The notes under the pieces were generated by a model. It saw nothing but the letters and a program-made list of their open reading frames with translations. It made no database searches and was not told the DNA's origin. A program made the translations under genes and the position numbers. A DNA stretch of 64,000 nucleotides from an uncultured Pseudomonadales bacterium (GTDB lineage: Bacteria > Patescibacteriota > Microgenomatia > UBA1400 > PJMF01). This document shows, one piece after another, positions 500 to 59,059 of the stretch; within the stretch, counting starts at the first letter, position 1; each line of letters begins with the position of its first letter. The stretch spans positions 69,249 to 133,248 of the forward strand of contig CAZVBO010000001.1 in NCBI GenBank assembly GCA_964625685.1, in the 5' to 3' direction.

Positions 500-1597
500 A
501 TGTTCCAGCCAAACTTTCAAATTACGAATAACTTGCTTACCTACATTTCACGAATTGAGGCTGCTAAGTCCATGATTGACCAGGCTCCACTAGTTCCAGC
601 CTGGGAAGCAAAATTCAGAGATGATGCTATGGCTCGAACAGTTCATTTTGGGACTAAAATCGAAGGAAATGATTTAACTCAAGATCAGGCTGAAAAAGTA
701 GTTCGGCTCAACGAAATGAGTGATCCTAAGCAAATTTCTGAAGCGGCAGGATTTATTGCTCGCGATCGCGATGTTCAAGAAGTCATTAACTACCGTAATG
801 TGGTGTCGTGGATCGATAATTGGCAGAGCCATGTTCCAAAAAGTGATATTTTTACGGTTGATACGTTAAAAGAATTACATGCATTATCAGTCAAATCAAT
901 TATTGATGATAAGTATGTGGGGGTGTACCGAGACAAACAAGTTATTGTTAAAAGTGCAGTTCGTGGCGAAGTAGTTTTTAGACCACCCGTATATGTAGAA
1001 ATTCCTTTCTTAGTTGATGAATTTTTTGTTTGGCTTGGTCAGGCTCAACAGCAGAAAATCATCCATCCCATTTTTCAAGCCGCGATTACTCATTATCAAT
1101 TGGTTTTTATTCATCCTTTTATTGAGGGAAATGGGCGGACTGCTCGTGCCTTTGCTACTTTAGTTCTCTATGTCTCAGATTATGATTTTAAGAAGTTTTT
1201 CTCAATTGAACAGTACTTTGACAGCGATGTGGAGGCGTACTATCAAGCCTTATTGTCAGTTCAGCAAGACTCTCATCATGATATGACCTATTGGCTAGAA
1301 TATTTTTGTTATGGTTTAGCCATTGAAATTGAGAAAATCAAAGCTCAAGTACTAAAGCTCTCTAAAGATCTGAAAATGAAAAAAGAATTGGGTGAGCAAG
1401 TAGCTTTATCAGAACGTCAAATTATTTTATTAGAGCTTTTACAAAATCAAGGCCGGATTACTTCTCAGGATGCTCAAGAAGTGTTACCTAATATTTCCGT
1501 AGATACTATTTTACGGGATTTAAAAGATTTAATAGAAAAAGGGGTGGTCAAAAAACAGGGAGTCACCAAGGGTGTGACGTATTCATTGAAGGAGTAA
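500..1597 (+). CDS. Fic family protein (Fic/Doc AMPylation-type domain with probable C-terminal winged-helix)
   Basis: The canonical Fic motif HPFIEGNGRTAR (HxFx[DE]GNGRxxR) is present. The internal ATG at 500 avoids overlap with the upstream gene, and the N-terminus NxLxYISRIE is Fic-like. Confidence 0.8.
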   Translation: MFQPNFQITNNLLTYISRIEAAKSMIDQAPLVPAWEAKFRDDAMARTVHFGTKIEGNDLTQDQAEKVVRLNEMSDPKQISEAAGFIARDRDVQEVINYRNVVSWIDNWQSHVPKSDIFTVDTLKELHALSVKSIIDDKYVGVYRDKQVIVKSAVRGEVVFRPPVYVEIPFLVDEFFVWLGQAQQQKIIHPIFQAAITHYQLVFIHPFIEGNGRTARAFATLVLYVSDYDFKKFFSIEQYFDSDVEAYYQALLSVQQDSHHDMTYWLEYFCYGLAIEIEKIKAQVLKLSKDLKMKKELGEQVALSERQIILLELLQNQGRITSQDAQEVLPNISVDTILRDLKDLIEKGVVKKQGVTKGVTYSLKE

Positions 1598-1600
1598 GAG

Positions 1601-1710
1601 CCAAATTCCAAAATCCAAAACTCAAACAAGTTCCAAAATACAAATTTCAACACTCATACACATCTTGATCTTTGAAATTTGTTTGATTTTTGAAATTTGA
1701 AGTTTGTAAT
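1601..1710. repeat. Intergenic A/T heptad repeat locus R1: CAAA-type arm (1601-1650), 20-nt spacer, then TTTG-type arm (1671-1710), forming an inverted pair
   Basis: The left arm reads ccaaattccaaaatccaaaactcaaacaagttccaaaatacaaatttcaa. It is facing tttgaaatttgtttgatttttgaaatttgaagtttg. The same motif family recurs at 27701-27872, 37177-37230, 38684-38722 and 53950-54050. Confidence 0.6.
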
Positions 1711-1788
1711 TTAAAGTCACTTGATAATCTTGGGCACTTGTTATTACTGTGCCTCGACTCATTTTCTGGGGAATGCTACCATCAAACT

Positions 1789-7465: not shown

Positions 7466-8023
7466 ATGAAATATCTTTTTGGTTTAGGAAATCCAGGTGA
7501 ACGCTATCAGTCTTCTCGCCACAATACTGGGTTTTTGTTGGCAGATAAACTCCAGCAGAGATTAGAGTTTCCTGAGTTTAAGCTTCAATCAAAAGTTCAA
7601 GCATTGGTCAGCAAACGGCAGCAACTGATCATAGCCAAGCCTCAAACTTTTATGAATGAATCAGGTAGAGCAGTACAATCAATGCTTAATTTTTATAATG
7701 AATCATCTCTACGAAATGTCTATATAGCCCATGATGATCTTGATTTAGCATTGGGTACTTATAAAATCCAGTTTGGCAAAGGTCCTAAAATTCACAATGG
7801 AGTCAACTCAGTTACCCAATATCTGAAGTCTGATCAATTTTGGCATGTGCGGATTGGGATTGATACTCGACAAAATGACCGTTCCATTCCCAGGCAACCT
7901 GCCTACTCAGGCAGGGATTATGTGCTCTTACCTATGACTAAAGAAGAACAAGTGTTATTGGACCAGACACTTGCTGAAGTTGCTGATCAATTAGTATCTT
8001 CTTTCTCAACAGAATATGACTGA
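7466..8023 (+). CDS. pth: peptidyl-tRNA hydrolase
   Basis: The N-terminus MKYLFGLGNPGERYQSSRHNTGF is the Pth signature, and the protein is about 185 aa. Confidence 0.9.
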   Translation: MKYLFGLGNPGERYQSSRHNTGFLLADKLQQRLEFPEFKLQSKVQALVSKRQQLIIAKPQTFMNESGRAVQSMLNFYNESSLRNVYIAHDDLDLALGTYKIQFGKGPKIHNGVNSVTQYLKSDQFWHVRIGIDTRQNDRSIPRQPAYSGRDYVLLPMTKEEQVLLDQTLAEVADQLVSSFSTEYD

Positions 8024-8339: not shown

Positions 8340-9511
8340 ATAAAGCGACCATCTTACTAATTTTTATCTTGATAATTCTCGCTGGTTTGACTGGGTATAA
8401 TTATTTTTTTCATCCTTTTGAAAATATCAATCAAGAACCAGTTTCCATGGAACCTAGTCCTGTTCCTTCACCCACTCCAGAACCAACACAGGCGGAGAAG
8501 CTACTTGAGCAACTTACTCCAGAACAGAAAGTCGCTCAAGTCTTAGCACTGCCCGTTGAGGTCGATGATATTGCAGAAAGTACTGGGAGTGCTGATCAAA
8601 GTCTCGCTTTCATTCAACAGTTTGATCCAGGTTTTGTTACTTTCTTTGGGACAAATGTGTCGACTGTTTCTGCCCACATGGCTGTTCAAACTGTTCACCA
8701 ACAAACCGCAGATTTCCCCTTATCACCTTTGATTGCAGTGGATCATGAGGGCGGAAATGTACAACGACTTCGAGGAACTGGTTTCACTCGGTTACCTAGC
8801 TGGTCAGCTGTATGTGATTTGGATTCAACAGATCAAATGGAACAATTAACTCAATCTGCTCAAGAGCTACATAGGGTAGGCATTGATCTTGTGTTTGCCC
8901 CAGTCTTAGATTACGGAACCAATTCCATCCTGGGTTCTCGAATTTGTTCCGATAATCCTCAAGTGGTGATACAAGCTGCTCAATTGTACATTCAGATTTT
9001 TCAACAACAATCAATTTTGCCGGTAATTAAACATTTCCCGGGAATTGGCAAAACAGCTAGAGATCTCCATACCCAATTTGATCAAGTCTTAATCACCGAT
9101 CAAGATGCTGATATTTATCGAACTATCTTGGATACCTATCCAAGCATTGGAGTGATGGTGACACACGTGGGTGTGGAAAATCAGTATCAGGATATCCCTT
9201 GTTCTTTAAGCAAAGTTTGTGTGGGTCAATTGACTCAGCAATACCCTCAAGCTCTTATCTTTAGTGATGCTTTGGAAATGAAATCAGCTACTCACGATGT
9301 AAATAGTGACCAACCCAAAGAGATTTATCAGGTAGCCAAAGAAGCAATTTTAGCAGGAGATGAAGTTTTGGTCTTTGGTGAAAAAGTAAGCTTAGAACAA
9401 TTAGAAGGTATTATTCATTATTTAACAAATTCGTATCAAACCAATCAAGAGTTTGCCCAACAGCTTGATCAAGCTGTTCTTAAAATCATAAATTACAAAC
9501 TTCAACCATAA
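8336..9511 (+). CDS. nagZ: beta-N-acetylhexosaminidase, GH3 family (NagZ-like), with N-terminal membrane anchor
   Basis: GH3 signatures IAVDHEGGNVQRL and KHFPGIG are present, and the start MNKATILLIFILIIL is a signal-anchor. Confidence 0.75.
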   Translation: MNKATILLIFILIILAGLTGYNYFFHPFENINQEPVSMEPSPVPSPTPEPTQAEKLLEQLTPEQKVAQVLALPVEVDDIAESTGSADQSLAFIQQFDPGFVTFFGTNVSTVSAHMAVQTVHQQTADFPLSPLIAVDHEGGNVQRLRGTGFTRLPSWSAVCDLDSTDQMEQLTQSAQELHRVGIDLVFAPVLDYGTNSILGSRICSDNPQVVIQAAQLYIQIFQQQSILPVIKHFPGIGKTARDLHTQFDQVLITDQDADIYRTILDTYPSIGVMVTHVGVENQYQDIPCSLSKVCVGQLTQQYPQALIFSDALEMKSATHDVNSDQPKEIYQVAKEAILAGDEVLVFGEKVSLEQLEGIIHYLTNSYQTNQEFAQQLDQAVLKIINYKLQP

Positions 9512-18282: not shown

Positions 18283-19335
18283 CTACTCTGGAATCAAAAC
18301 TTGGTCATCAGTGGTTAAACCAGAGGTGACTTCAATTTTGTCATCTGTTTCTAAACCGGTGGTAATTTCTCGTTCTTCATATGTATTCTCACCTGTTTTT
18401 ACATCTACATAGGTTTTATCATCCCGTTCTCGAGTGGCATCAACCGGAATGCTTAAAACCTGAGGTTTAGACTCGACAATTAAAGAAATGTCTCCATTCA
18501 TTCCAATTTTGTATTTAGTCAAATCTTGGCTTTCAATGGGAAATTCAACCACAAAAACGGTTCCAGTGGAGGATTGACTACTGGAAAATGAAATGTAATT
18601 CACTTTGGTATGAATTATTTCATCAGGATAAGCATCCAACTCCAAATCTGCGGGCTGATCCAAACTAACTTGAGAAATATCAGCCTCATCAATGGCTGCT
18701 TTAAAAATTAAAGTCTGTGGATTCACTAAATCAAACGTGTCACCAGCTGTGAGCTGGACTCCAGGAACATTCGTCGGACTTTTAATTAATACCCCGGCAA
18801 ATGGGGCATAGAGAGCATTATTTTTAATTGCAATATCTCGAATTTCTACATTCAGAACCTGGTTTTCTAAATTCCAATGTTCCTGATCTACTTGACGTTG
18901 CTCTTCCTGAGGAAGGGTTCGATCTTCGGTGTCATCTAAAGTTTGCTCCCAATCCCAGCGTTCTTTCATGTAGTTGTTGAGATCTTGTTGAAGTTGTTTT
19001 TCCAAAGCCGCTTTATCGACGGAAGCTATAGTCTGCCATTTTTTGACCCAGTCACCTTCTTTGGCGCCTAAATATACCACTTTTCCACCTGCTAAAAAGC
19101 GCATGCTAGCTTTTTCTTTAGCATCAATGATTCCGGAAACATCCAGGGTTTTAGTTAGATCTTCTACTTGGGGGTGTTCGAATGTAAGTTCAGTTTTGTT
19201 ATTTTGTTTTCGGGAAAAGTAAATTCCAACAATTCCTAGAATCACTAATACTAAAAGAACGAGTTTCCACCGTCTTTTAAGCCAGTTGAAAATATTTTTT
19301 ACTATTCGTTTCAGTTTTGACATAACCTGTATCAT
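18283..19335 (-). CDS. efflux periplasmic adaptor (membrane fusion protein, HlyD/MacA family)
   Basis: An N-terminal TM anchor, a coiled-coil region and a beta-barrel/lipoyl-like C-terminus are present, upstream of the ABC pair. The start was trimmed to ATG 19335 so that it does not run into the tRNA. Confidence 0.7.
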   Translation of the reverse strand: MIQVMSKLKRIVKNIFNWLKRRWKLVLLVLVILGIVGIYFSRKQNNKTELTFEHPQVEDLTKTLDVSGIIDAKEKASMRFLAGGKVVYLGAKEGDWVKKWQTIASVDKAALEKQLQQDLNNYMKERWDWEQTLDDTEDRTLPQEEQRQVDQEHWNLENQVLNVEIRDIAIKNNALYAPFAGVLIKSPTNVPGVQLTAGDTFDLVNPQTLIFKAAIDEADISQVSLDQPADLELDAYPDEIIHTKVNYISFSSSQSSTGTVFVVEFPIESQDLTKYKIGMNGDISLIVESKPQVLSIPVDATRERDDKTYVDVKTGENTYEEREITTGLETDDKIEVTSGLTTDDQVLIPE

Positions 19336-19413
19336 ACCAAATTTTTTCCCCTGGTAAAATCCAGAGTTTGTCTGGAGATGAAACCGATACTTACTGTTAT
19401 AATAAGTACGCTT

Positions 19414-19487
19414 GCGCGCATAGCTCAATTGGTTAGAGCACAAAGCTTATACCTTTGCGGTTCTAGGTTCGAGTCCTAGTGCGCGCA
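19414..19487 (+). tRNA. tRNA-Ile, anticodon UAU (DNA TAT)
   Basis: The 74-nt sequence folds as a cloverleaf. The acceptor stem is GCGCGCA/TGCGCGC. The D-arm is GCTC-AATTGGTTA-GAGC. The anticodon arm is CAAAG-CTTATAC-CTTTG with U33 and A37. The T-arm is CTAGG-TTCGAGT-CCTAG. No CCA is encoded. Confidence 0.75.
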
Positions 19488-19556
19488 CTTTCTTACTTAG
19501 TTGTGACTTTATTCCGTATCCTTTTAAGTCTTCATTTGATCCAATGAGGTTTGATC

Positions 19557-20670: not shown

Positions 20671-21125
20671 TTACAGAATAATTAGCATACTGGCAATACC
20701 CAGCAAGACGGTGCCGATTCCAATGCCTAAGATCTTCAAACCATCGTTGAGACCAGTTTGAGGTAATTGCTCTGGCAGAGTGGGTTGCTGGGCTGGAGCA
20801 GGATTGCCGGCAATGGTAGCTGCAGTACAAGTGGCACTGTTGACATTGGAATCCAATCGGCACCGGCCATTCCAGCAGATGTAACTGGAATTATTACAGT
20901 CGGCATTATTGACACAAGTGTCATTACAGCCAATTGGAGCAGCTGGAGTAGGAGTGGGATTGACGAGTACACAATTGGTTGAGTCACAGGTAGCTCCACT
21001 GATCAGACACGAATCGTAAACACAGCGGCCACTACTACAAGTGTGATTGCTGGGACATTCTGCATTGGTAGAACAAGTATCATTACAGACTTTAGTCATA
21101 GTAGGTGTAGGAGTTACTCCAGGTG
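20671..21125. repeat. About 450-nt direct duplication (~85% nt identity) shared by the 3' ends of genes 20671-21990 and 24239-26050 (second copy at 24239-24695)
   Basis: The nucleotide strings align across this stretch, from ...ggcaatacccag(c/t)aagac(g/a)gt(g/t)cc(g/a)attccaat... through to ...gtatcattaca... Confidence 0.75.
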
Positions 21126-21990
21126 TTGGTGTTATTCCTGGCGTTGGTGTTGGGGTAGTTTTTGGTGTACATTTATCACTTTCACAACTAGCAGCATCAT
21201 CTAAACATTGGTTGAGTACACAGACATTATCGCTACATGTGTGATTAGTGGGACATTGAGAGTCGGCAGTACAGCTTTCACCACAAGCGTTGGAGGTAGT
21301 AACAGTTACTGTAGTCTGGCAACTAGTGGTGAGACTGTTTTCAGTTGAGGTAACATTAGCCGTATTGATGATATTTGTATCGTTGCTGACGGAGCTATTG
21401 ATTTTGACTCGGAAAGCCACTGAATTATCTTGATCTACATCTTGTTGATCACAAATGAGGGTTTTTGTTGAATCATTGTAGGCCTCTTCCCCACAAGTGG
21501 AGTCCAAGAAAGTGACACTACTATCGAGAACATCACTGAGATTAAACGTCAGTGTGGTAATTCCTGATGAGATCATGGCAATTTTATAAACCACAGTATC
21601 ACCTGGGTTAAAGGTTGATTTCTGAGTTAGAAGTGAGTAACTTCCTGCAGAGTTACTGAGTTCATCTTGATAGGCAGTTTTGGTACAACTTAAAGTTGGT
21701 GTTTGAGTTCCCGCAACTACAAAACTTAAGCTACAATTGCCGCTCCCTTCTTCTGAAGCTTGAGATTCACTGGGGGTGGTTGTATAGGTTGTTTGGATTC
21801 GTTGCATTAATGCGACATAGACTCCCACCATCGCTAAAACCAAGAAAGAAGTCAATCCAATCACAGTTAAGATAGCTCGTCGATCAACTCCAAATAGCTT
21901 TTTTTGAGGCTTCATTCCAGGGTTATTTTTCAAAGTTGGAGTAGCTTTGGTGTAATTTGCCTGGGTGGTTGAGTTAGATTCGTTTATCAT
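20671..21990 (-). CDS. cysteine-rich modular surface protein with C-terminal LPQTG sorting signal (paralog A)
   Basis: An N-terminal signal-anchor is followed by (TP)n linkers. Three 8-Cys modules follow, for example CNDTCSTNAECPSNHTCSSGRCVYDSCLISGATCDSTNCV. The C-terminus is LPQTGLNDGLKILGIGIGTVLLGIASMLIIL. Confidence 0.7.
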   Translation of the reverse strand: MINESNSTTQANYTKATPTLKNNPGMKPQKKLFGVDRRAILTVIGLTSFLVLAMVGVYVALMQRIQTTYTTTPSESQASEEGSGNCSLSFVVAGTQTPTLSCTKTAYQDELSNSAGSYSLLTQKSTFNPGDTVVYKIAMISSGITTLTFNLSDVLDSSVTFLDSTCGEEAYNDSTKTLICDQQDVDQDNSVAFRVKINSSVSNDTNIINTANVTSTENSLTTSCQTTVTVTTSNACGESCTADSQCPTNHTCSDNVCVLNQCLDDAASCESDKCTPKTTPTPTPGITPTPGVTPTPTMTKVCNDTCSTNAECPSNHTCSSGRCVYDSCLISGATCDSTNCVLVNPTPTPAAPIGCNDTCVNNADCNNSSYICWNGRCRLDSNVNSATCTAATIAGNPAPAQQPTLPEQLPQTGLNDGLKILGIGIGTVLLGIASMLIIL

Positions 21991-24238: not shown

Positions 24239-26050
24239 TTATAGAATAAGGAGTAAACTGGCAATACCCAGTAAGACAGTTCCAATTCCAATTCCCAGAA
24301 TCTTGAACCCATCATTCAAACCAGTTTGAGGTAATTGCTCTGGTAAAACTGGTTGCTGGGCTGGAGCAGGACTCCCTGCGATGGTGGCAGCAGTGCAAGT
24401 AGTACTATTAACATTGGAATCTAACCGGCACTGACCATTCCAGCAGATGTAACTGGAATTATTACAGTCAGCATTGTTGACGCAGGTATCGTTACAACCG
24501 ACCGCAGCTGGAGGGGTAGGAGTAGGATTGACCAGCACACAATTGGTAGAGTCACAAGTTGCTCCGCTCAAGAGACAAGAATTATACACACAGCGACCAT
24601 TAGAACAGGTATGATCACTGGGGCATTCAGCATTAGTGGTACAAGTATCATTACAAGCCTTAGGGGTTGGAGTAGGGGTGGGACTAGCTGATGGGCTGGG
24701 TGTTGGCGTCGGCGTTGGAGTCGGAGTAGGAGTAGGTGTTGGGGTAGGAGTAGGTGTTGGAGTTGGGGTGGGTGTTGGGGTGGGGGTAGGAGTGGGTGAG
24801 AGTGAACATGAAACAGCCACATCGTTAGCAACTCCCTCTGGATCAGTCGGATTTACAGAAATAGTCCGAGAAACCCCACCACACGCTGCTTGAATTAAGG
24901 TATAGGCTTTAATATGGTGCATATACACCGATCCGGTTATACCTCCGGCAATATTGAGGACACCCACACCTTCGGTTCTAGGTGAATAGTTTTGCCCAAA
25001 TGTATCAATTTGACAATTACTCTTGGCTGCCCATGAAACTACTACTGATGAATCATAAGGAATGATAATAGGATTAGTGTGGTGATTGGTGGTTCGTCCA
25101 TTGACTAAAACGGTGGGAATTGGCTTTCCCTCACTCGTTACATCTTCAGAGGAATATGGCAGAGCTGGGTGTGGATCTGGAATAGTGGTGGAAGAAATTG
25201 GTCCTACTGTGGCAGTTACCCAATCTGAATAGCAAGTCACATTACTATCCATTTGTCCTTTAGCCCGAATTCGATACTGACCCTCTCGTAAGCCGGTAAT
25301 AATAGTAGAAGTGGGATTGCCTACACGTTTAAGAGAAGCGGGACTGACAGCAGCAATATTTCCAGTTGTTCCAGTGGTAATATTTTGATATTCAAAATTA
25401 ACTGTTTGAACTTTGTGATCATCTTTACCTTCTCGAGTCACACGGGCTGTTGCCAAGATAGTTCCACAAATAGGAATGGTAGGGATACTGTCTAAACTAA
25501 TAGAACAATAGATCTCACCTTCGACTGGTTGACCCTCGTTTCCCGGAGGCGTTGTAGTGTCAGCTCTACAGCCCTCACCACAGTTATATTCTGAATAGCC
25601 ACAATATGAACCATTGTCATCAGCTACGGTATAAAGGTCTACTTGGCCACATTGACCATTAAGGGATAAAGGCTCAGAAGATTTTGTCTCAAGTTCATAA
25701 CATCGGTAAATTCCGTCATTATCTTTGGTACAACCATCGTTACAGACGTATCTCACATATTGGGCTACTCTTTGATCAGATTTAGCAGGATCAGTACACA
25801 TACCACCTGAGGCGCGTTGTCTCACATCTTGACTAGTTCTCATCAAGTAAAACGCTACCAAGCCTCCTAGTATGAGTAATAACAAAATACCTCCACTTAG
25901 GAGATACTTCCAAGTATTTCTCTTTTTTGTGGATTTGATGGGTGGATAAGAGTTTGGTGGTGTTTGAGGGGCTTGTGTTTCCTCAACTGGCATCACTGGA
26001 GACGAATTGGAAACTGGAGGAGTTAAAGGTGTTTGGTTAGCATTAATCAT
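24239..26050 (-). CDS. cysteine-rich modular surface protein with (TP)29-like linker and C-terminal LPQTG sorting signal (paralog C)
   Basis: The order of elements is: N-terminal anchor, the MCTDPAKSDQRVAQYV... module, two beta-sandwich-like regions, a long PTPTPT... linker, two 8-Cys modules and LPQTG plus a hydrophobic tail. Confidence 0.7.
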   Translation of the reverse strand: MINANQTPLTPPVSNSSPVMPVEETQAPQTPPNSYPPIKSTKKRNTWKYLLSGGILLLLILGGLVAFYLMRTSQDVRQRASGGMCTDPAKSDQRVAQYVRYVCNDGCTKDNDGIYRCYELETKSSEPLSLNGQCGQVDLYTVADDNGSYCGYSEYNCGEGCRADTTTPPGNEGQPVEGEIYCSISLDSIPTIPICGTILATARVTREGKDDHKVQTVNFEYQNITTGTTGNIAAVSPASLKRVGNPTSTIITGLREGQYRIRAKGQMDSNVTCYSDWVTATVGPISSTTIPDPHPALPYSSEDVTSEGKPIPTVLVNGRTTNHHTNPIIIPYDSSVVVSWAAKSNCQIDTFGQNYSPRTEGVGVLNIAGGITGSVYMHHIKAYTLIQAACGGVSRTISVNPTDPEGVANDVAVSCSLSPTPTPTPTPTPTPTPTPTPTPTPTPTPTPTPTPSPSASPTPTPTPKACNDTCTTNAECPSDHTCSNGRCVYNSCLLSGATCDSTNCVLVNPTPTPPAAVGCNDTCVNNADCNNSSYICWNGQCRLDSNVNSTTCTAATIAGSPAPAQQPVLPEQLPQTGLNDGFKILGIGIGTVLLGIASLLLIL

Positions 26051-27599: not shown

Positions 27600-27700
27600 A
27601 CAAAATACAGACGTAACTAATCCGTCTTATATAAATTTAGAGAAATTTCAGAGAGAATACAACGCGAAGAACAACCGAAATAGATCAGAATAGAGCAATG

Positions 27701-27872
27701 TCAAAGTTCAAAAATCCAAACAAGTTTAAAGCCAGCCCAAGGCTGGTCCGTCTTGGACGGAAATAAAGAAGAAAGAATAAAAAGGGTTAAAGATATACAG
27801 GGATAAAGCTAAAAGCCTAAAACTGAATTCTGAATTTTGTTTGAAATTTGGATTTTGAGTTTTGAGCTTTTA
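27701..27872. repeat. Intergenic A/T heptad repeat locus R2: CAAA-arm (27701-27730), two GC hairpins (27731-27760), TTTG-arm (27826-27872)
   Basis: The left arm is caaagttcaaaaatccaaacaagtttaaag. It is followed by gccagcccaaggctggtc and ccgtcttggacgg. The right arm is gaattttgtttgaaatttggattttgagttttgagc. Confidence 0.55.
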
Positions 27873-31343: not shown

Positions 31344-31477
31344 AGGGTGATTATACTAATGTTTATTGATTAATGTCTAATGGTTAATATTCAGTGTTTA
31401 GTCTAAGTGATTTGTGTTAGTGATGATCATGTTTTTTTGGAGTTTGAATGTTGGGCTCTGGTTTTTAAAAAGAAAGA

Positions 31478-37134: not shown

Positions 37135-37176
37135 AGCTAAAGGAGCAAAGAAGAAAGATTATCGTTGCTAGTGACT

Positions 37177-37230
37177 GAATTTTGGAAATTGGATTTTGTT
37201 TGAGCTTTGGAATTTGAAGTTTGGTTTTTT
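37177..37230 (+). repeat. Intergenic A/T heptad repeat locus R3 (TTTG-type)
   Basis: The sequence gaattttggaaattggattttgtttgagctttggaatttgaagtttgg shows about 7-nt periodicity. Confidence 0.55.
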
Positions 37231-38267: not shown

Positions 38268-38486
38268 ATGAAAGATAGTTTTCGAGATGCTCAAACTGAT
38301 TATGATAAATTTCGCCGCCATGCTGAAGAAATTGAGTCCGAAAAAGAGCGTAAAAGAGCTGAGCGTGAAGCTAAAAAAAAAGAGAAAGAGTTGAAGAAAA
38401 AACGAGAAAAACAAGAGAAATTAGTGGCTCCGATTCTACTTTTGATTACGATTTTGATCGCGATGATGTTATATGCTTTCCGGTAA
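38268..38486 (+). CDS. hypothetical K/E-rich small protein with C-terminal TM
   Basis: The ORF starts 2 nt after the cmk stop. It has a charged helical N-terminus and a hydrophobic C-terminus. Confidence 0.4.
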   Translation: MKDSFRDAQTDYDKFRRHAEEIESEKERKRAEREAKKKEKELKKKREKQEKLVAPILLLITILIAMMLYAFR

Positions 38487-38683
38487 AAAATCCTATAATT
38501 ACCCCTTCAGAAAATAAAAATTAGACAAACTGCTCACCGGAGTCGTCCGGCGCCTTCTCCGGACTCGGCAAATCACTTCCCATAGATGAATGTGAATATT
38601 CTTCAGTCAGTAGTGGTCAGTGCTTTGACGCTCCTTTTGATCAGTTTGTCTGGGATTTTTATTCTGTTGATTCTTAAACTTGG

Positions 38684-38722
38684 ATTGTGTTTGAGATTTG
38701 GATTTTGGAATTTATCTACAGT
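38684..38722 (+). repeat. Intergenic A/T heptad repeat locus R4 (TTTG-type)
   Basis: The sequence cttaaacttggattgtgtttgagatttggattttggaattt lies at the convergent gene junction. Confidence 0.5.
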
Positions 38723-41106
38723 ATCTGTCCTCGGCCGCGTTGTTGAATATTGGGAGTGGGGGTCGGGATAAACATTTCAGGAGTACAAGCTCGGGTTGGT
38801 TCTTTACCTTGCTCAAAAACTTCTTCAATAACTTTAGGACAGCTAGCACAGGGTAGTGTCCCAGTTGAGGCACAAATTTTGACTTTGATGAGATTATCAG
38901 GTTTGGCTAAAACACTAGGATTAGTTTCCGATAATAATCCTCTCATAATTTCATTCCAAATAGGTGAAGCACCCGTTATACCTGAAGCGACATAACTCAT
39001 AGGTGTATTGTCATTATTTCCTACCCAGGTGGCAACTAACCGATCATTGGTATAACCAATGGTCCAGTTATCGCGAAGATTATTGGTCGTTCCAGTTTTT
39101 ACGGCTACTTGTTGCCCAGGAATATTAAGTACCGACTGGGGTCCAAAAGCAGGAGTTCTCGCAGTATTATCAGACAAGATATCGGTGATTTGATAAGCAG
39201 TAGCTGAAGAGAGAGTTTGAGTTCCCGGACATTGTTCTTGGTTAATGGCACAAGTATTGTAATACAAAACTTTATTTTTATAGTTACGCACATATAAAAT
39301 AGGATTAAGTGGAACCGTAGTTCCACCATTGGCAAAGGTGCCATAGACTTGGGTCATATCAGTCATTAAGACCTCACCACCGCCCAAAGTCAGAGATAAA
39401 CCGAATCGTTTGCGGTCGGTCCAAGTACTGATACCCATACTGGTAGCTTTATCAATCATGGTGTTAATGCCAATTGAAGCCAATGTTTTAACAGCGGGAA
39501 TGTTATAAGAAGAGGCTAATGCCTCCCGCGCAGTCACATTTCCATGAAACTTTCCATCGTAATTCTGAGGACTATAAGGTGGACTGCCCACCACTTGATA
39601 GGTAATAGGAGCATCTTGAATGATTGAACTGGGGGTTAATTTCCCCAGTTCAAAGGCTGTGGCATAGGTAATAGGTTTGATAGAACTTCCTGGCTGGCGA
39701 GGCCGAGTGGCGACGTTGACTTGACCATCGTGCTCAAAATCAAAATAATTAACACTGCCTACCATCGCCAGAATTTCGCCTGTTTTGGGATTGGTGACCA
39801 TGGCAGCTCCATTGGTCACATGAAGATTTTTGAGTTTACTGATTTCTGTTTGTACTGCCGCTTCTGCTTGATGTTGAACATCTAAATCAAGAGTTGTCCG
39901 AACTTCGAGTCCCCCCTGAGTCAAGGCTTCTTCTCCGTATAAATTAGCTAGGAGAGTACGAATATACATCACAAAGTGTGGGGCTTGGATATCGGTTTTG
40001 TCTTGAACAAAACTGAGTTTTTCTTGGCGAGCTTGTTCGGCTTCTTCAGAAGTAATATAACCATCTTCGATCATACGGCGAAGCACTTCGGCTTGACGAG
40101 CATAGGCCCGTTCAGGATTGGTACCGAATGGAGTATAGGCGGATGGAGCTGCTGGCAATCCCGCCAGCATGGCACTTTCTGCTAAATCAAGCTCCGAAGC
40201 GTGTTTACCAAAGTAACGTTGAGCGGCTTCTTCCACACCGTAGGTAGAGCCACCATAGGGAATTTCGTTAAAGTACATTTCTAAAATTTGATCTTTGGTA
40301 TAGGTGCCATCTACCACAATGGCTAAGACTACCTCTCGCAATTTTCGTTTGAGGGTTTGTTCGGGTGTGAGTAGAGTGTTTTTAACAAGTTGCTGAGTAA
40401 TGGTTGAACCACCTTGCTGAATAGATTCCCCTTTCATATTGGCGATGGCGGATCGGATAATTCCTTTGATCGAAAAACCATGGTGGTTGTAAAATTCCTG
40501 GTCTTCAATAGCCACGGTGGCATGAATCATATCTTCAGACACCGCGGACAAGGGAATAATGGTTCGGTTTTCATCTTTGTAAATGTTATAGAGCAAGCGT
40601 CCTTTCCGATCTAAAATTTTAGTACTCACTTTTTGATCAATAGTAGTTAAATCACTTGCTTGGGGAAGATCTTTAAAGACAAGGTCATAGGTGAGATAGG
40701 CAAAAAGGACAATCACCAGAGTTAAACTAAATGAAAAAAAAGTTCGCCACGGGTAACTTTTTAGAGCTGAAAAAATATTGAGCTGAGACCAAGAAAACTG
40801 AAAAGTTGGTTTGTGTAGTTTTGGTATCCTTTTTAGATAATGAGAGATTTTAAGCCTGAATTGCCACAGAGTAAAAATGACTTCTTTTACGAAACGAAAT
40901 AAAACATCAAATAGAGTTTGATGACTGTAAATAATGGCATTTGTTTTTTTGACAGTAATGGTTCTTTTTTTAGGGGATGTGAGATGAGAAGAATAGATTA
41001 GTTTATCAATCCATTTTGAGAAATAATAATGGGTGCGTACTCCAATGAGCCCAAAATATTTGAGAAAGTTTGTCAAAGACTGATAGAAAAACAACCGGAA
41101 AGACAT
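38716..41106 (-). CDS. class A penicillin-binding protein (bifunctional GT51 transglycosylase / transpeptidase), paralog 1
   Basis: The GT51 motifs are EDQEFYNHHGF and GGSTITQQL. The transpeptidase motifs are SSIKP and KTGTTN. An N-terminal TM helix is also present. Confidence 0.85.
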   Translation of the reverse strand: MSFRLFFYQSLTNFLKYFGLIGVRTHYYFSKWIDKLIYSSHLTSPKKRTITVKKTNAIIYSHQTLFDVLFRFVKEVIFTLWQFRLKISHYLKRIPKLHKPTFQFSWSQLNIFSALKSYPWRTFFSFSLTLVIVLFAYLTYDLVFKDLPQASDLTTIDQKVSTKILDRKGRLLYNIYKDENRTIIPLSAVSEDMIHATVAIEDQEFYNHHGFSIKGIIRSAIANMKGESIQQGGSTITQQLVKNTLLTPEQTLKRKLREVVLAIVVDGTYTKDQILEMYFNEIPYGGSTYGVEEAAQRYFGKHASELDLAESAMLAGLPAAPSAYTPFGTNPERAYARQAEVLRRMIEDGYITSEEAEQARQEKLSFVQDKTDIQAPHFVMYIRTLLANLYGEEALTQGGLEVRTTLDLDVQHQAEAAVQTEISKLKNLHVTNGAAMVTNPKTGEILAMVGSVNYFDFEHDGQVNVATRPRQPGSSIKPITYATAFELGKLTPSSIIQDAPITYQVVGSPPYSPQNYDGKFHGNVTAREALASSYNIPAVKTLASIGINTMIDKATSMGISTWTDRKRFGLSLTLGGGEVLMTDMTQVYGTFANGGTTVPLNPILYVRNYKNKVLYYNTCAINQEQCPGTQTLSSATAYQITDILSDNTARTPAFGPQSVLNIPGQQVAVKTGTTNNLRDNWTIGYTNDRLVATWVGNNDNTPMSYVASGITGASPIWNEIMRGLLSETNPSVLAKPDNLIKVKICASTGTLPCASCPKVIEEVFEQGKEPTRACTPEMFIPTPTPNIQQRGRGQIL

Positions 41107-41198: not shown

Positions 41199-42413
41199 TT
41201 ACAGAGAAAGTTTTCGCAAAATAACATCCCACAGTTCTTGGTAATTTCCTTCATACCCAAGAGCCCAAATCGCTATTCCACCAAGATCAAGTTGATTCAC
41301 AAAATCTAGCTTATAAGAAAGTGAACGGGAGTTATCGTAATAAATGACATGGGTTTGGTCATCTTCGGTATACACTAAATAAGGTGAAAGTGCTTCTTCA
41401 TTCCAATGCTCTTCCACTTGAAGTTCATTTTTGTTAGCCAAAACTTCTTGAACCCGTTGGTAACTAGCGGTAGCTCCGGTATTAGGAATGGTAGTTGCTA
41501 ATTCATCGTCGCTGGTTGTTTGCCATTCATACCCATAAAAGGGAACTCCCAGCAATAATTTGTCTGCAGGAACTACTTTAATAAAATCCTTTAAGTGGTC
41601 ACTAATATCACTATCCCACAAAGTTTTCCCGCCAAATAAAGGGGCAACTGGTCCAGCGATAGGTGATGACTGTCGGTGAAAGTCATAGGCCATGATGACG
41701 ATATAGTCTACTTGTTTCCCAATAGCCTCCACATCCCAGATTAATGGTCTGGAAGCTGCTGAGGAATACATATCAATTGAAAGGGGAATCCCCGCATACT
41801 TTTGAGTGAGATGATTATGAAGCTTGGTCACAAAAGCGACCAAGTTTTGACGAAGATGGTCAGTCACTTCACCAGAATATTCAATATCAACATTTACGCC
41901 CTCAATAGGATAAGCCAGTAAAATAGAATCAAGAGAAGTGATCAAGCTCTGTTGGGCGGTCTCAGAATTTAAAAAACTGACAATGTCATCATTGTTGAAT
42001 TGTGTCAGTGCAATCTCCATTTTCCCTTTATTATGACTTACTTGTTGGGCAATCTGTAAAAATTCATCAGAGTTGAGTTTATTAAATCCAGGTTCGGTAT
42101 ATCCATCTTCACCGACTGTAATCAATTTGCCATCTCCCCCGATGGTCAGACCAAAATAAGCCAGGTTAGTCAGTTCTGGATGAACCGTTACTTTATTTAG
42201 GTTCCAATAGGGTAAGAAGCCATAGACAACTTTTTTGGGATGTGGTGAAGGATTGGAAAAAAATTGAAAGGTAGGATTATCGGATAAAGGGGAAAGTAGA
42301 GGTTGATCTTGTAAATAACGAAAAGTGAGCCAGCTAATTATCAGCAGACTGAAAAGAAGTAAAACCAATCCAATTTTTCGTCGCCAGGTACGCTTATTCA
42401 TGATCACTACCAA
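41199..42413 (-). CDS. GH18-family glycoside hydrolase (chitinase / YaaH-like peptidoglycan hydrolase)
   Basis: The GH18 catalytic region GVNVDIEY (DxDxE) is present with an N-terminal TM anchor. The ORF lies between two PBP genes. Confidence 0.6.
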   Translation of the reverse strand: MVVIMNKRTWRRKIGLVLLLFSLLIISWLTFRYLQDQPLLSPLSDNPTFQFFSNPSPHPKKVVYGFLPYWNLNKVTVHPELTNLAYFGLTIGGDGKLITVGEDGYTEPGFNKLNSDEFLQIAQQVSHNKGKMEIALTQFNNDDIVSFLNSETAQQSLITSLDSILLAYPIEGVNVDIEYSGEVTDHLRQNLVAFVTKLHNHLTQKYAGIPLSIDMYSSAASRPLIWDVEAIGKQVDYIVIMAYDFHRQSSPIAGPVAPLFGGKTLWDSDISDHLKDFIKVVPADKLLLGVPFYGYEWQTTSDDELATTIPNTGATASYQRVQEVLANKNELQVEEHWNEEALSPYLVYTEDDQTHVIYYDNSRSLSYKLDFVNQLDLGGIAIWALGYEGNYQELWDVILRKLSL

Positions 42414-50113: not shown

Positions 50114-50137
50114 ATCGTACGGAGTGAATATTAAAAA

Positions 50138-50165
50138 AAGAGCTTCCGAAAGGAAGCTCTTTTAG
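50138..50165 (+). terminator. Rho-independent terminator after nrdJ
   Basis: The hairpin AAGAGCTTCC-gaaa-GGAAGCTCTT is followed by TTAG after an A-tract, so it may be bidirectional. Confidence 0.6.
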
Positions 50166-53294: not shown

Positions 53295-53945
53295 ATGGAA
53301 CTTGATCGCTTAGTTGTCTCATTTTTTGTAGATGAAGTCGTAGGAGGCTTTTTTATTTCGGTACCACCAGGACACGTAGCCTGTGTGTATGATCGGGGTC
53401 GAGGTGTTTTACCCTATGTTTGGGGTCCTGGGCTGCATTTAAAAATTCCTTTTTGGCAAGTGGCTAAATTATTCAATGCGCAAGTGTTAGAGTTTTCGAT
53501 TCATAAGGGGTTTGATGCCTCTCGGAATAAAGAAGCTTTGGGTGATGAAGAGATTATGACCAGCACTCAAGATGGGCATGATATTACAATCGAAGGGTCC
53601 ATTCTTTTCCGGATAGACAAACAGAATGCTCCAGAACTGTGGGAAAATTTAGGTGACAATGTAGTATCTAAAGTGGTTCGCCCCTTTTCTCGAAGTCGAA
53701 TTTCAGCGGTGTTTTCTCAATTAACGTTAGATCAGATTAAGCAAAACCGAGCTCAAGTTGAGTTAATGGTCAAAGATGATCTTAATCATCATTTCCAAGA
53801 TCGAGGCTTAAACTGTGAAGGTTTCTTACTTTCCAAAATTGGAGTAATTGAAAAAGGCGGTCGGGAGAAAACTATTTTTGAAGAAGAAGTTAAACCGACA
53901 GCCCAAGAAGTGGCAGCTGATATTTTCCAAGCAGATGGAGAATAA
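53295..53945 (+). CDS. SPFH/Band-7 (prohibitin/stomatin-like) domain protein
   Basis: The SPFH core is present: VPPGHVACVYDRGRGVLPYVWGPGLHLKIPFWQVAKLFNAQ, followed by ...ITIEGSILFRIDKQNAPELWENLG. Confidence 0.6.
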   Translation: MELDRLVVSFFVDEVVGGFFISVPPGHVACVYDRGRGVLPYVWGPGLHLKIPFWQVAKLFNAQVLEFSIHKGFDASRNKEALGDEEIMTSTQDGHDITIEGSILFRIDKQNAPELWENLGDNVVSKVVRPFSRSRISAVFSQLTLDQIKQNRAQVELMVKDDLNHHFQDRGLNCEGFLLSKIGVIEKGGREKTIFEEEVKPTAQEVAADIFQADGE

Positions 53946-53949
53946 TTTC

Positions 53950-54050
53950 TTAAACTCCAAATCTCAAAATTCACCTGCCCGCAATGTTTTCAGCATAGCT
54001 GATGCAGGCGGGAATTCCAAACAAACTTCAAACTCCAAGTTCCAATCTTC
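53950..54050. repeat. Intergenic A/T heptad repeat locus R5: two CAAA-type arms (53950-53972, 54013-54050) flanking a GC-rich imperfect hairpin (53974-54012)
   Basis: The left arm is cttaaactccaaatctcaaaattc. The central hairpin is acctgcccgcaatg...gatgcaggcggg. The right arm is aattccaaacaaacttcaaactccaagttccaatc. Confidence 0.55.
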
Positions 54051-54191
54051 TGTAAACCTGTAACCTTTTAAACCTTGTTTGGTTTCTGGTTAGAATTCCC
54101 CTTTTCTAAAATGGGAATCAAGTGAGTAAAACGAACCTGATGGGGTATTTAAGTAGCTCCTTAAACACCTCTATCAAGCTTGCGCTTGATG

Positions 54192-54220
54192 TCTCCTCTT
54201 TAAGAAGAGGAGATTTTTAG
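54192..54220 (+). terminator. Rho-independent terminator (TCTCCTCTT-taag-AAGAGGAGA + TTTTT)
   Basis: A perfect 9-bp stem followed by a T5 run is visible between the SPFH gene/repeat R5 and the groES promoter. Confidence 0.5.
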
Positions 54221-56392: not shown

Positions 56393-56460
56393 CCTGAACC
56401 GAGTCAGACTCGGTTCAGGATCTCATCGAGGCCCCTTGCCGTGAGTGGTGAGGGGCTTTT
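56393..56460 (+). terminator. Tandem hairpins after groEL: a 13-bp GAGTC-centred palindrome (56393-56419) then a GC-stem terminator with T-tract (56431-56460)
   Basis: The first hairpin is CCTGAACCGAGTC-aga-GACTCGGTTCAGG. The second is GCCCCT-tgccgtgagtggtg-AGGGGC followed by TTTTG. Confidence 0.6.
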
Positions 56461-58050: not shown

Positions 58051-58102
58051 CAATGTAAAAGGATCCCGTTTATCGGGGTCTTTTTTATTTTTAGAAAGAG
58101 AT

Positions 58103-58787: not shown

Positions 58788-59059
58788 CCATTTACCTTTT
58801 CCTCAAAGTTAGCCTTCATTTTTAAGTTTATTCTTTTTTTCTTATTTTTTCTCTTTTGCCACCAGTGTTTATCCATGATGTTTACGTCAATGCCCTCTAA
58901 TGTAATCTTTGTTCCCTTTCTTCCAGTTTCATCTGTAAATCGACGAATTCTTGTCCCAACTAGACCCAGGAAAACAGCTTTTGTTTCCTCAGCTATTTGT
59001 CTTAAGAGAGATGGAGGAGCTTTTTCAGGTTCTGATTGATGGGGATAGTGTTCATACAT
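58682..59059 (-). CDS. hypothetical protein (extent uncertain; 3' 106 nt overlap the convergent GIY-YIG gene)
   Basis: The N-terminal 80 aa look protein-like and are not low-complexity. The overlapping tail may be a non-coding read-through of the ORF. Confidence 0.25.
   Translation of the reverse strand: MYEHYPHQSEPEKAPPSLLRQIAEETKAVFLGLVGTRIRRFTDETGRKGTKITLEGIDVNIMDKHWWQKRKNKKKRINLKMKANFEEKVNGHFRNFNSLIFLSRLHPLISASLFNASERDLNFSW

Follow-up and report, generated by a model that had tools for sequence, protein, structure and literature searches.

The window, by which we mean the whole 64-kb stretch of DNA that was analysed, carries five array loci, about one per 13 kb, in which heptanucleotide units form eight arm copies of about 30–55 nt each. 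The features are listed below; the first E-value is that of a profile built from the eight arms (nhmmer) and the second, where given, that of a profile built from arms of other phyla.

1597–1650, minus strand: left arm of locus 1, CAAA-type on the plus strand, beginning 3 nt past the stop codon (1595–1597) of a Fic-family gene and holding two chains of TTG at a 7-nt period (E 3e-8; 2.9e-8).
1651–1661, no strand: spacer between the facing arms of locus 1 (from the sequence; inverted repeat I6).
1662–1712, plus strand: right arm of locus 1, TTTG-type, about 75 nt ahead of an ATP-dependent DNA ligase gene (likely ATG at about 1789); its flanking genes were identified by Pfam (E 1.7e-7; 7.3e-6).
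27690–27733, minus strand: arm of locus 2, TTTG-type on the minus strand (the coding sense of both neighbouring genes) and upstream of gene 27599–26064 (E 6.7e-5; 2.2e-3).
27732–27760, no strand: two adjacent GC-rich hairpins of locus 2, beside the preceding arm, CCAGCC-CAA-GGCTGG and CCGTC-TTG-GACGG (hairpin scan; fold of the minus strand).
27761–27818, no strand: A-rich spacer of locus 2 (from the sequence).
27819–27872, plus strand: arm of locus 2, TTTG-type on the plus strand and CAAA-type in the sense of gene 28320–27886, whose stop codon is 13 nt off (E 4.3e-8; 8.7e-6).
37175–37228, plus strand: single TTTG arm of locus 3, 40 nt past the smpB stop codon and about 80 nt ahead of a LiaF-like gene, continuing into a T7AT6 tract (E 1.9e-7; 7.2e-7).
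38669–38715, plus strand: single arm of locus 4, adjoining the stop codon (38718–38716) of the minus-strand PBP1 gene and CAAA-type in PBP1 sense (E 1.4e-8; 2.5e-4; also from the sequence).
53946–53973, minus strand: first half-arm of locus 5, CAAA-type on the plus strand, directly 3′ of the stop codon (53943–53945) of a Band7/SPFH gene (E 5.4e-3, profile positions 24–56).
53974–54012, no strand: GC-rich nested hairpin dividing the locus 5 array (fold; sequence of sister-species contig L132).
54013–54045, minus strand: second half-arm of locus 5, CAAA-type on the plus strand (E 9.9e-5, profile positions 2–37; 4.5e-3).

The five intergenic heptad arrays reported in a first-pass annotation were all found as described, and the five loci are, with little doubt, copies of an element built as a degenerate array of heptanucleotides. 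Chains of at least four units with TTG spaced exactly 7 nt apart (TTGN4TTGN4TTGN4TTG) occur six times in the window versus 0.05 expected (sd 0.22; 100 dinucleotide-preserving shuffles), so that such arrays are far rarer in shuffled sequence; an independent chain scan with block shuffles as control gave 6 versus 0.03. All six chains fall in loci 1, 2, 3, and 5 and none in genes, and the same scan of the window gave no chains at other periods (4–11) or with other triplets, except for the overlapping TTT, AAA, and CAA. The profile from the eight arms retrieved exactly eight matches in the window (E 1e-8 to 5e-3; next E 2.5), none of them in a coding region. Likewise, an unbiased lag-7 self-identity scan singled out only the five loci plus another heptad locus at 31353–31408, as well as a borderline one at 58809–58857, whose score is within the range reached by shuffles. 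The arms align as copies of about 45 nt with consensus TTGGAWYTTGTTTGAGNTTTGGAWTTTGRARTTTG, and are thus more ordered than loose heptads, with no three identical units in succession in any window array. The coordinates and strands of the arms also bear out the facing CAAA and TTTG arms noticed at loci 1 and 2, and the GC-rich hairpins noticed at loci 2 and 5 were recovered at 27732–27746, 27748–27760, and 53974–54012.

The repeat unit is (A/G)TTTG(G/A)(A/T), or about ATTTGGA, with C avoided on the TTTG strand. Each arm consists of a variable inner run of units, a TTTGTTTG phase step and an outer module of about four units, the consensus of the arm profile being TTTGTTTGGAATTTGGTNTTTGGAATTTGGAATTT plus inner units. 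In the alignment, the TTGTTTG phase step is present in all five full-length window arms, and it was found in 52 of the 86 non-window arms that the search pattern had not picked out, most often followed by four units. The median arm length is about 46 nt, and both element length and unit order differ from locus to locus. Arms occur singly or as inverted pairs, at times with GC hairpins between or within them; in three of the five window loci the arms have one orientation only, while loci 1 and 2 obey a strict polarity rule: among inverted neighbours within 200 nt, the CAAA arm was 5′ and the TTTG arm 3′ in 64 cases and the opposite order in none (48:0 in an earlier count). This rule reads alike on either strand, always with an A/C-rich CAAA arm 5′ and a T/G-rich TTTG arm 3′, and the spacers between facing arms range from 3 to 168 nt. 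Base composition is markedly asymmetric (T.485, G.26, A.20, and C.05 on the TTTG strand; C.26 and G.05 on the CAAA strand), and where genomic GC exceeds 55%, the variable positions gain G and not C, except for position −1. On one strand, three of the four degenerate positions shun C, high-GC genomes included. Adjacent units are identical in only 8% of cases, with a likeness of 0.48 versus 0.42 for units of different loci, and the resemblance is slightly higher between every second unit than between neighbours (0.515 vs. 0.483), which hints at a 14-nt super-period.

A core-pattern scan returned at least 118 loci in genomes of 28–67% GC, and the heptad layout is present in at least a dozen bacterial phyla as well as in one archaeal contig (L030), which is genuine and contains two complete arm pairs. 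The window itself belongs to a Patescibacteria genome, and the suggestion of a lineage-specific element thus no longer holds. The other-phyla profile, made with 46 arms of which none contains the search pattern, retrieved seven of the eight window arms in register (E 2.9e-8 to 4.5e-3; next E 0.22). With the same unit, end module and polarity from 28 to 67% GC, this is one degenerate family. Among cultivated bacteria, Flavobacterium akiainvivens IK-1 was confirmed as a carrier and Algibacter sp. 2305UL17-15 gave a weak match; the community sequenced as SRR13617028-47 is a further source of carriers. The core-pattern scan gave only six matches in viral contigs and the element therefore does not look virus-borne; with BLASTN, plasmid and phage collections yielded nothing similar to a complete planctomycete element, a negative outcome to which the low-complexity filter may contribute. 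In a sister species of the window genome, arrays occupy two matching intergenic sites with their sequence turned over: the orthologue of the locus 3 arm is at 7629–7674 of contig L135, and the array at the locus 5 site (L132) is uninterrupted and lacks the GC hairpin. Arrays were wholly absent from relatives with 64–72% identity in cytidylate kinase (cmk), two of them with 91% GroEL identity, and are therefore dispensable. Among the sister lineages, the SRR29076162 relative has arrays and GCA_015657875.1 has none. The shared layout, together with this patchy occurrence in close relatives, suggests that the arrays have a reader, or a way of being generated, in common.

A patchy, multi-copy and exclusively intergenic element, found in the window species and its sister and missing from the next relatives, could be a REPIN- or MITE-like mobile element that is not autonomous, with the outer modules as terminal inverted repeats for a transposase whose gene lies elsewhere and single arms as decayed halves. 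The single polarity of the pairs is the one that terminal inverted repeats would give, the conserved module lies at the outer ends, and, compared with the sister species, the locus 5 array has a GC hairpin inserted. We nevertheless consider this origin quite unlikely: arm copies within a genome (identity 0.528) are no closer than copies from different genomes (0.502), cross-phylum copies included, with no sign of a recent copy burst; length and unit order vary at every locus; the arms are not self-pairing hairpins, unlike REPs; and no target-site duplication is visible, by eye only, on comparing the filled and empty sites of locus 3. Additionally, there was no transposase family common to the loci among the ORFs of the 118 loci, and no autonomous, ORF-carrying version was found, with only one arm pair in CAAA-then-TTTG order at separations of 500–4000 nt.

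The arrays might also be a largely neutral by-product, that is, heptanucleotide repeats made by slippage, tolerated between genes and decaying by point mutation. In many prokaryotes, heptanucleotides are described as the commonest long simple-sequence repeats, and as sporadic in their occurrence among taxa (Mrazek 2007, as relayed in PMC4679880), and both the near-homogeneous units of some loci (e.g., L072 and L099) and the rapid turnover between sister species would fit such an origin. We regard it as very unlikely, however, in view of the scarce identity of adjacent units, barely more alike than units across loci, of the persistence of these AT-rich arrays in genomes of 60–67% GC, and of the constant array length among near-identical strains. 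Moreover, unrelated phyla have in common the phase step with its four units as well as the 64:0 polarity, and TTG is fixed amid varying flanks, as far as this can be judged with a detection that itself required TTG.

No linked protein family emerged from the 118 loci. When 3108 of their ORFs were clustered all against all, the only clusters were of spurious ORFs reading through the arrays and of histidine kinases and response regulators, and no DNA-binding gene was linked to the arrays in these loci. This last result, and the variable spacing of facing arms (from 3 to 168 nt), count against the proposal that the arrays are iterons of double-stranded DNA in which each 7-bp unit is the site of a multimerising DNA-binding protein, in the manner of the omega repressor of pSM19035 on its heptads, perhaps as architectural or silencing sites for the product of a horizontally moving accessory gene. 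The conservation of primary sequence without covariation, the footprint-like outer module fixed at about four units past the phase step, the lack of a significant orientation bias of single arms relative to genes and the patchy occurrence among close relatives would all suit iterons, and a study of Nostoc heptamers likewise posits an unnamed binding partner (10.1101/2022.06.06.494920). Still, avoidance of C on one strand in high-GC genomes resembles a property of a single strand rather than of base-specific contacts with the duplex, and we consider iterons unlikely.

As to structured RNA, a role put forward in the first-pass annotation, the data speak against it. Complementarity was 0.383 for partner arms versus 0.360 for non-partner arms (p =.06), without pair-specific pairing; mismatches compatible with G·U numbered 39 in the sense and 39 in the antisense direction, with neither a G·U excess nor a sense bias, and transversions dominated; and single arms folded no better than shuffles (z = +0.6 for locus 3 and −1.05 for locus 4). 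The same annotation had recognised no known motif and had set DnaA boxes aside; Rfam agrees with the lack of a known motif: at gathering thresholds only three tRNAs were retrieved from the window, and an E-value search with ten array-rich loci gave only spurious hits, below threshold, to plant miRNA precursors. GC hairpins adjoin some of the arms (31 + 37 contacts for 235 arms), although most arms lack one, and those of the window do not form one repeat family; at locus 2 the hairpins are followed by CUUUAAACUUG. A scan with the intrinsic-terminator consensus called none of the five loci, while it called terminators elsewhere in the window (50136–50163, 54191–54214, 56428–56459, and 58057–58085); an ordinary intrinsic terminator lies about 140 nt past locus 5, and normal terminators occur elsewhere in the genome.

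Across loci, and using crude ORF calls, 185 of 249 arms were intergenic, and the first arm past a stop codon was in CAAA sense in 65 cases versus 19 in TTTG sense (p = 5e-7), or 40 versus 10 when taken by genome majority; for pairs, the polarity rule itself produces this bias. Nearly half of these CAAA-sense arms (29/65) lie within 15 nt of the stop codon, and in all four window loci with a CAAA-sense arm it lies 0–13 nt past it; TTTG-sense arms mostly end 9–35 nt ahead of a start codon. Single-orientation arms between co-directional genes were in CAAA sense in 23 cases versus 15 in TTTG sense, which is not significant. Arrays were also seen where the neighbouring genes converge, and likewise where they diverge (9 out of 64 such regions). 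A family of UP elements, another of the early suggestions, is at odds with CAAA arms that abut stop codons, with arrays between convergent genes and with the archaeal occurrence. Sigma-70 promoters were discarded on a motif misfit, judged by eye, and on a promoter scan without enrichment, and integron attC sites were rejected by eye as their motifs do not fit.

Arms that end shortly before start codons, with strand-asymmetric, structure-poor alphabets, might serve as docking arrays for a single-strand RNA-binding protein that contacts about 7 nt per domain and, instead of ending transcription, tunes translation or mRNA decay of the adjacent genes; the candidates would be cold-shock domain, S1 or Sm/Hfq proteins, or CsrA through GGA motifs. 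TAACTGA repeats (PMC4679880) and Nostoc heptamers (10.1101/2022.06.06.494920) are similarly placed, and S1, Csp, and CsrA have been put forward as readers of the former (PMC4679880). This role appears improbable to us, since single arms have no clear sense-strand preference and no candidate protein family is known to us that all carrier groups (Bacteroidota, Patescibacteria and archaea) have in common; likewise, a six-frame translation of the 64-kb window revealed no convincing cold-shock, Hfq or Rho motif, only an isolated KWFN match in a stop-interrupted frame, which is weak evidence in a window of that size.

Our tentative preference, held at rather less than even probability, is that the arrays are a gene-boundary module read as single-stranded nucleic acid in both directions. 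We favour a single-stranded reading because C is shunned on one strand and G on its complement, even above 55% GC, and the reading would most plausibly take place at the transcript level. A polymerase arriving from either side would first transcribe, just past the stop codon, a C-rich, G-poor and structure-poor RNA, which can be likened to a rut site or an entry platform; it would then transcribe a U/G-rich RNA with a TTGTTT tract, which may resemble the TTNTTT NusG-dependent pause motif, and this second arm might pair loosely with the first. Gene boundaries could in this way become sites of pausing, termination or RNA processing, possibly through a reader whose binding keeps a 7-nt (or 14-nt) register. 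The intergenic position, the 64:0 polarity, the post-stop CAAA bias, the TTTG-sense arms ahead of start codons, the strand composition, the GC hairpins, the hint of a 14-nt super-period and the matching sites in the sister species support this gene-boundary module. Conversely, the lack of an RNA-helix signature, the archaeal pairs, the arrays between divergent genes, the relatives without arrays, the nonsignificant bias of single arms (23 vs. 15), the fact that for pairs the post-stop bias is a consequence of polarity, and the terminator about 140 nt past locus 5 count against it. To our knowledge archaea lack Rho, and the occurrence on contig L030 therefore argues against Rho as a general reader. 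The positive descriptors of rut sites are an excess of C over G, the percentages of AAC, ACA, and CAC, and YC dimers with linkers of 9–13 nt (PMC6144790), and in heterocystous cyanobacteria, which are Rho-less, RUT-like sequences from 3′ ends cut read-through when placed in E. coli (PMC13613805).

It is also conceivable, though we think it rather unlikely, that Bacteria and Archaea share a separate class of non-coding element, represented by these arrays, with a layout imposed by one reader, which might be a universal transcription component (e.g., NusG/Spt5, through the T-rich non-template strand) or a horizontally mobile single-strand-binding protein; the STRR and heptamer repeats would then be its homogeneous form. 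Intergenic heptamer repeats have been noticed in cyanobacteria, Beggiatoaceae, and Geobacter, and the published accounts covered identify neither a function nor a reader; our searches of the literature with repeat-sequence strings gave no relevant description of the heptad family. The family is now detectable with a profile, so that array presence can be compared with the gene content of sister lineages and, if the arrays mark transcript boundaries, operon and terminator prediction would improve in uncultivated groups such as Patescibacteria.

Several known systems share part of these features. The omega repressor of pSM19035 binds contiguous 7-bp units (WATCACW), one per protein dimer, whose relative orientation matters; its operators are few, plasmid-borne and beside the regulator's own genes, whereas the heptad family recurs along the chromosome. 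REP, BIME and REPIN sequences are short extragenic repeats, often just past stop codons, that occur as singlets and inverted doublets, form mosaics with other short modules and vary in presence between related genomes. A REP, however, is a GC-rich imperfect palindrome, genome-specific and co-inherited with a RAYT transposase, whereas heptad arms do not self-pair, having an alphabet without C or G, their sequence is common across phyla, their copies within a genome are not closer, and no RAYT gene was seen in the loci examined. With MITEs the heptad pairs have in common terminal inverted repeats of fixed orientation (64:0, with a conserved outer module), but not a uniform length, an autonomous relative or, as judged by eye, a target-site duplication.

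The CAAA arm is rut-like in being richer in C than in G, G-poor, unstructured and right behind the stop codon, with YC dimers at a distance of 14 nt if alternate units are taken, and its make-up of AAC, ACA, and CAC fits the positive descriptors (PMC6144790); nevertheless, the median arm is shorter than the 57 nt of a full Rho primary binding site (PMC6144790). An A-rich arm, a GC hairpin and a T-rich arm, in that order, also recall a bidirectional terminator, but most arms have no adjacent GC hairpin and the five loci went uncalled in the terminator scan. The heptad family, unlike rut sites and these terminators, is also in an archaeon.

The closest known systems are the cyanobacterial STRR and Nostoc heptamer repeats, together with the TAACTGA repeats. 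The latter are direct repeats of marine Beggiatoaceae, Cyanobacteria and Bacteroidetes (MacGregor 2015, PMC4679880) and, like the heptad family, are intergenic heptamers, sporadic across phyla and missing in close relatives, with no evident transfer mechanism (PMC4679880). They differ in unit sequence and in being nearly all direct, in ‘forward’ orientation just upstream of start codons, and neither inverted pairs of fixed polarity nor a phase step or a link to GC hairpins has been reported for them (PMC4679880). STRR and Nostoc heptamers are, like the window arrays, tandem 7-nt intergenic units with many loci per genome, and lie near start codons or promoters. The repeats of this group, including those of Nostoc PCC 7120, are (TTTTGAA)n and GAC(C/T)AAT, the reverse complement of the latter being ATTGGTC. 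Both TTTTGAA and ATTGGTC fit the NNTTGNN unit of the window family, and units of the TTGGTCA type occur within arrays of the present data set. Whereas STRR and Nostoc arrays repeat one identical unit and have been described in cyanobacteria, the window family has degenerate units (92% of neighbours differ) in many phyla, and its heptamer arrays also have a phase step, an outer module of four units and inverted pairs of fixed polarity.

Reading of the window sequence bore out the heptad arrays that the first-pass annotation had claimed at five loci, and the case for them is stronger than first stated. Repeat finding and alignment showed that the window copies go beyond loose heptads: they are alignable over ca. 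45 nt, with consensus TTGGAWYTTGTTTGAGNTTTGGAWTTTGRARTTTG. Array copies make up repeat families D4, D8 and D10, together with inverted pairs I2-I4, I6 and I8. A profile built from them retrieved exactly eight arms in the window (E-values from 1e-8 to 5e-3; next match, 2.5), with 0/8 in coding regions. TTG repeated at an exact 7-nt period over four units occurs six times in the window, versus 0.05 in dinucleotide-preserving shuffles and 0.03 in block shuffles, and no other period or unrelated triplet showed TTG-like chaining in the window scan. A lag-7 scan without motif bias recovered the heptad loci together with another heptad locus (31353-31408) and segment 58809-58857, which is borderline, its lag-7 score being no higher than shuffles reach. 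The profile, shuffle and lag-7 results therefore gave neither outcome named beforehand as contrary to the claim, namely shuffled sequences equally rich in heptad arrays or a similar density inside coding regions. An Rfam search of the window returned three tRNAs only and no array match. The genes flanking the five loci are unrelated housekeeping genes.

Heptad arrays of the window (approximate coordinates) and their flanking genes
1601-1710 (locus 1): inverted pair; Fic-family gene and ATP-dependent DNA ligase gene
27701-27872 (locus 2): inverted pair; hypothetical gene and purple-acid-phosphatase-like gene
37177-37230 (locus 3): lone TTTG-sense arm; smpB and LiaF-like gene, then cmk (cytidylate kinase gene)
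38684-38722 (locus 4): single arm; small conserved ORF after cmk and PBP1 gene
53950-54050 (locus 5): single array interrupted by a GC hairpin; Band7 gene and groES

At loci 1, 2, 4 and 5 the CAAA reading runs in the same sense as the upstream gene and lies 0-13 nt past its stop codon, and the arm of locus 3 sits between smpB and the next gene. The window genome (ca. 39% GC) is patescibacterial (CPR), as its GroEL has homologues at 80-82% identity named Pacebacteria, Woesebacteria or Patescibacteria; it also contains ordinary intrinsic terminators, one of them ca. 140 nt downstream of locus 5. The ORF after cmk (38268-38487), which cuts the intergenic region of locus 4 to ca. 228 nt, encodes a segment rich in lysine and glutamate and, at the C terminus, a hydrophobic helix; its position is conserved in contigs L135, L129, L130, L136 and L137 from other genomes. 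Two class A penicillin-binding protein genes (38716-41106 and 42394-44841), 1.3 kb apart, are paralogs and share several DNA segments of 70-86% identity (families D5, D9, D11, D18 and D19). Two neighboring minus-strand genes carry in-frame tandem repeats of 6, 12 or 18 nt, of the GGTGTTGGAGTA type (24649-24808 and 21094-21174), and look paralogous because their 3′-terminal 300 nt (20671-20970 and 24239-24538) are 81% identical. A tRNA-Ile with anticodon TAT, uncommon among bacteria, at 19414-19488 overlaps the predicted start region of the minus-strand ORF 18283-19443.

An exact scan with the core pattern TGTTTGARNTTTGGAWTTTGR, using one genome per species, matched at least 118 loci, with ca. 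nine chance matches estimated by information content under uniform base composition. Among the matches listed, ca. 103 of 118 loci have heptad arrays of the same kind around the pattern and ca. 15 resemble chance or coding matches. By record titles, the matches listed come from Desulfobacterota, Bacteroidota, Planctomycetota, Lentisphaerae, Verrucomicrobiota, Omnitrophota, many Patescibacteria groups, Gammaproteobacteria, Acidobacteriota, Nitrospirae, KSB1 and others; contigs of 0.6-4.5 Mb and the isolate Flavobacterium akiainvivens IK-1 are among them, and their locus GC spans 0.28-0.67. In viral contigs the pattern was matched only six times. Two complete arm pairs occur on contig L030, which is genuinely archaeal by its ORFs, identified by eye (ribosomal protein L15e, diphthamide synthase-like and MfnA-like). 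Contig L012, from a record labelled Candidatus Pacearchaeota, shows by eye an apparent bacterial-type DNA polymerase III alpha (DnaE) and a ThrRS; the contig is probably bacterial (CPR-like) and mis-binned and, since both genes look bacterial, was left out of the archaeal count. The suggestion that the arrays are specific to this lineage was thus wrong, as they occur in many phyla and on L030. A profile from 46 arms of other phyla, taken without selection by the search pattern, matched 7/8 window arms in register and nothing else, so that the window arms are members of this cross-phylum family. The five loci are part of a genuine, widely distributed family whose layout follows defined rules.

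The unit is (A/G)(T)TTG(G/A)(A/T), most commonly ATTTGGA (499 units outside the search pattern). On the TTTG strand, C makes up 5% of arm bases; in genomes above 55% GC the free unit positions move towards G on this strand, with C at ≤5% in three of the four. Inverted neighbors ≤200 nt apart are always ordered CAAA arm then TTTG arm (64 versus 0), whereas in pairs 0.5-4 kb apart the order is reversed (13 to 1), as expected if compact elements stand apart with genes in between. Of 86 arms outside search-pattern selection, 52 contain a 4-nt phase step, TTGTTTG in nearly every case, which is most often followed by four units and the end of the array. The outer string TTGTTTG-NN-ATTTGGTGCTTGGAATTT is shared by arms from Desulfobacterales, Pirellulales, Planctomycetota, Verrucomicrobiae, Paceibacterota and Pseudomonadales. 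Four loci (L070, L073, L076 and L084; planctomycete, Saprospiraceae) have TTCG variant units (ATTTCGG and ATTTCGA) in place of TTTG units, with the architecture unchanged.

A sister species from sample SRR29076162 (95% GroEL and 80% cmk identity to the window) has arrays, reshaped, at two window sites. After Band7 (sister contig L132, 9272-9345) the CAAA array is unbroken and without GC hairpin. The GC-rich nested hairpin splitting the locus 5 array (53974-54012) has no second copy in the window; its absence from the L132 array points to insertion in the window lineage or loss in the sister. From smpB to the LiaF-like gene (sister contig L135), a 95-nt CAAA arm adjoining the stop codon is followed by a 190-nt spacer and then by the TTTG ortholog of the locus 3 arm. 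That spacer contains a 26-nt pyrimidine-rich string, CTTTGTTCTTTCTTCTTTAAACTTTT, twice (7475-7500 and 7575-7600), and the string recurs in another intergenic region after cmk (L135, ca. 8985-9010). The MurJ/S20 region of the sister has an array of the same kind, and that of the window is without one. Relatives at 64-72% cmk identity (two at 91% GroEL) keep the gene order and lack arrays in the 3-21 kb segments compared. From these comparisons, array presence persists over short range while the sequence turns over, and is gained or lost slightly further away. A second, distinct heptad family, with unit NTTARTG (TAATGTT, TCTAATG, TTTAGTG), lies in the window between a MurJ-like gene (minus strand) and the S20 gene (plus strand) at 31353-31408, where Tandem Repeats Finder gave period 7 and 6.3 copies. 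NTTARTG arrays also occur in L135 (95-117, 268-330 and 8920-8975) and L132 (ca. 9470-9510); in the sister species they flank a CAAA array, in the order TAATG-type then CATTA-type.

The first arm past a stop codon, often ≤15 nt away, is CAAA-sense in 65 cases versus TTTG-sense in 19 (p = 5e-7; 40 versus 10 by genome majority), and TTTG-sense arms mostly end 9-35 nt 5′ of start codons. In pairs, the post-stop bias is entailed by the polarity rule; between co-directional genes, arms in a single orientation showed no significant bias (CAAA-sense 23 versus TTTG-sense 15). Among matched loci, the share of intergenic regions with arrays is 24% where the genes are co-directional, 22% where they converge and 14% where they diverge. 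Of 235 arms, 31 have a GC hairpin on one side and 37 on the other. In one planctomycete MAG of 64% GC, arms and several GC hairpins form a regular mosaic of ca. 250 nt (L101, 3040-3310 and 4640-4860, and other VGYL01 contigs), in which a purine-rich insert, AAAAGGGAAGAAAA, can lie on one or the other side of the centre.

Because one strand avoids C and the other G whatever the genome GC, and because arm order is fixed for any polymerase crossing the element, we tentatively favor a role at the single-strand level, which would most plausibly be that of a module marking transcript boundaries. The RNA emerging past the stop codon would be rich in C and poor in G, and the stretch after it would be U/G-rich with a TTGTTT tract. 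Against a boundary module, a helix signature is absent, single arms are not clearly biased in sense, the element is present in an archaeon and close relatives lack it. A rival reading, docking arrays for an RNA-binding protein, seems improbable.

Complementarity between partner arms did not exceed that between arms of different loci, and G·U-compatible arm mismatches showed no enrichment or sense-strand bias (39 versus 39), which rules out a conserved helix. The arrays could also be duplex heptad iterons bound by an accessory DNA-binding protein, which we consider somewhat unlikely. Free-column identity was 0.528 within genomes versus 0.502 between them, ruling out a recent copy-and-paste burst; no array-linked protein family was found and no ORF-carrying version of the element was seen. 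It is unlikely that the arrays are REPIN/MITE-like elements mobilised in trans. Adjacent units are identical in only 8% of cases, and their similarity hardly exceeds that of units taken from different loci, peaking slightly at a distance of two units; locus 5 did not change in length among four near-identical strain contigs; this dissimilarity and constant length rule out fresh slippage products. Decaying slippage products are quite improbable.

The array repeat strings were not found in published papers. The CAAA arm fits the published descriptors of rut sites (C>G, AAC/ACA/CAC, YC dimers with 9-13 nt linkers; PMC6144790) when every second unit is used, and in E. coli, RUT-like 3′-end sequences from heterocystous cyanobacteria that lack Rho reduced read-through (PMC13613805). 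The closest descriptions are the contiguous heptamers of Nostoc PCC 7120, (TTTTGAA)3 and eight copies of GAC(C/T)AAT, which match NNTTGNN unit by unit and for which that study invokes an unidentified binding partner (10.1101/2022.06.06.494920); the TAACTGA repeats of Beggiatoaceae, Cyanobacteria and Bacteroidetes (PMC4679880), with a like sporadic cross-phylum distribution; and heptanucleotide elements described from Geobacter. We would class the element as a new variant, degenerate and with a defined architecture, of these poorly understood intergenic heptamer repeats.
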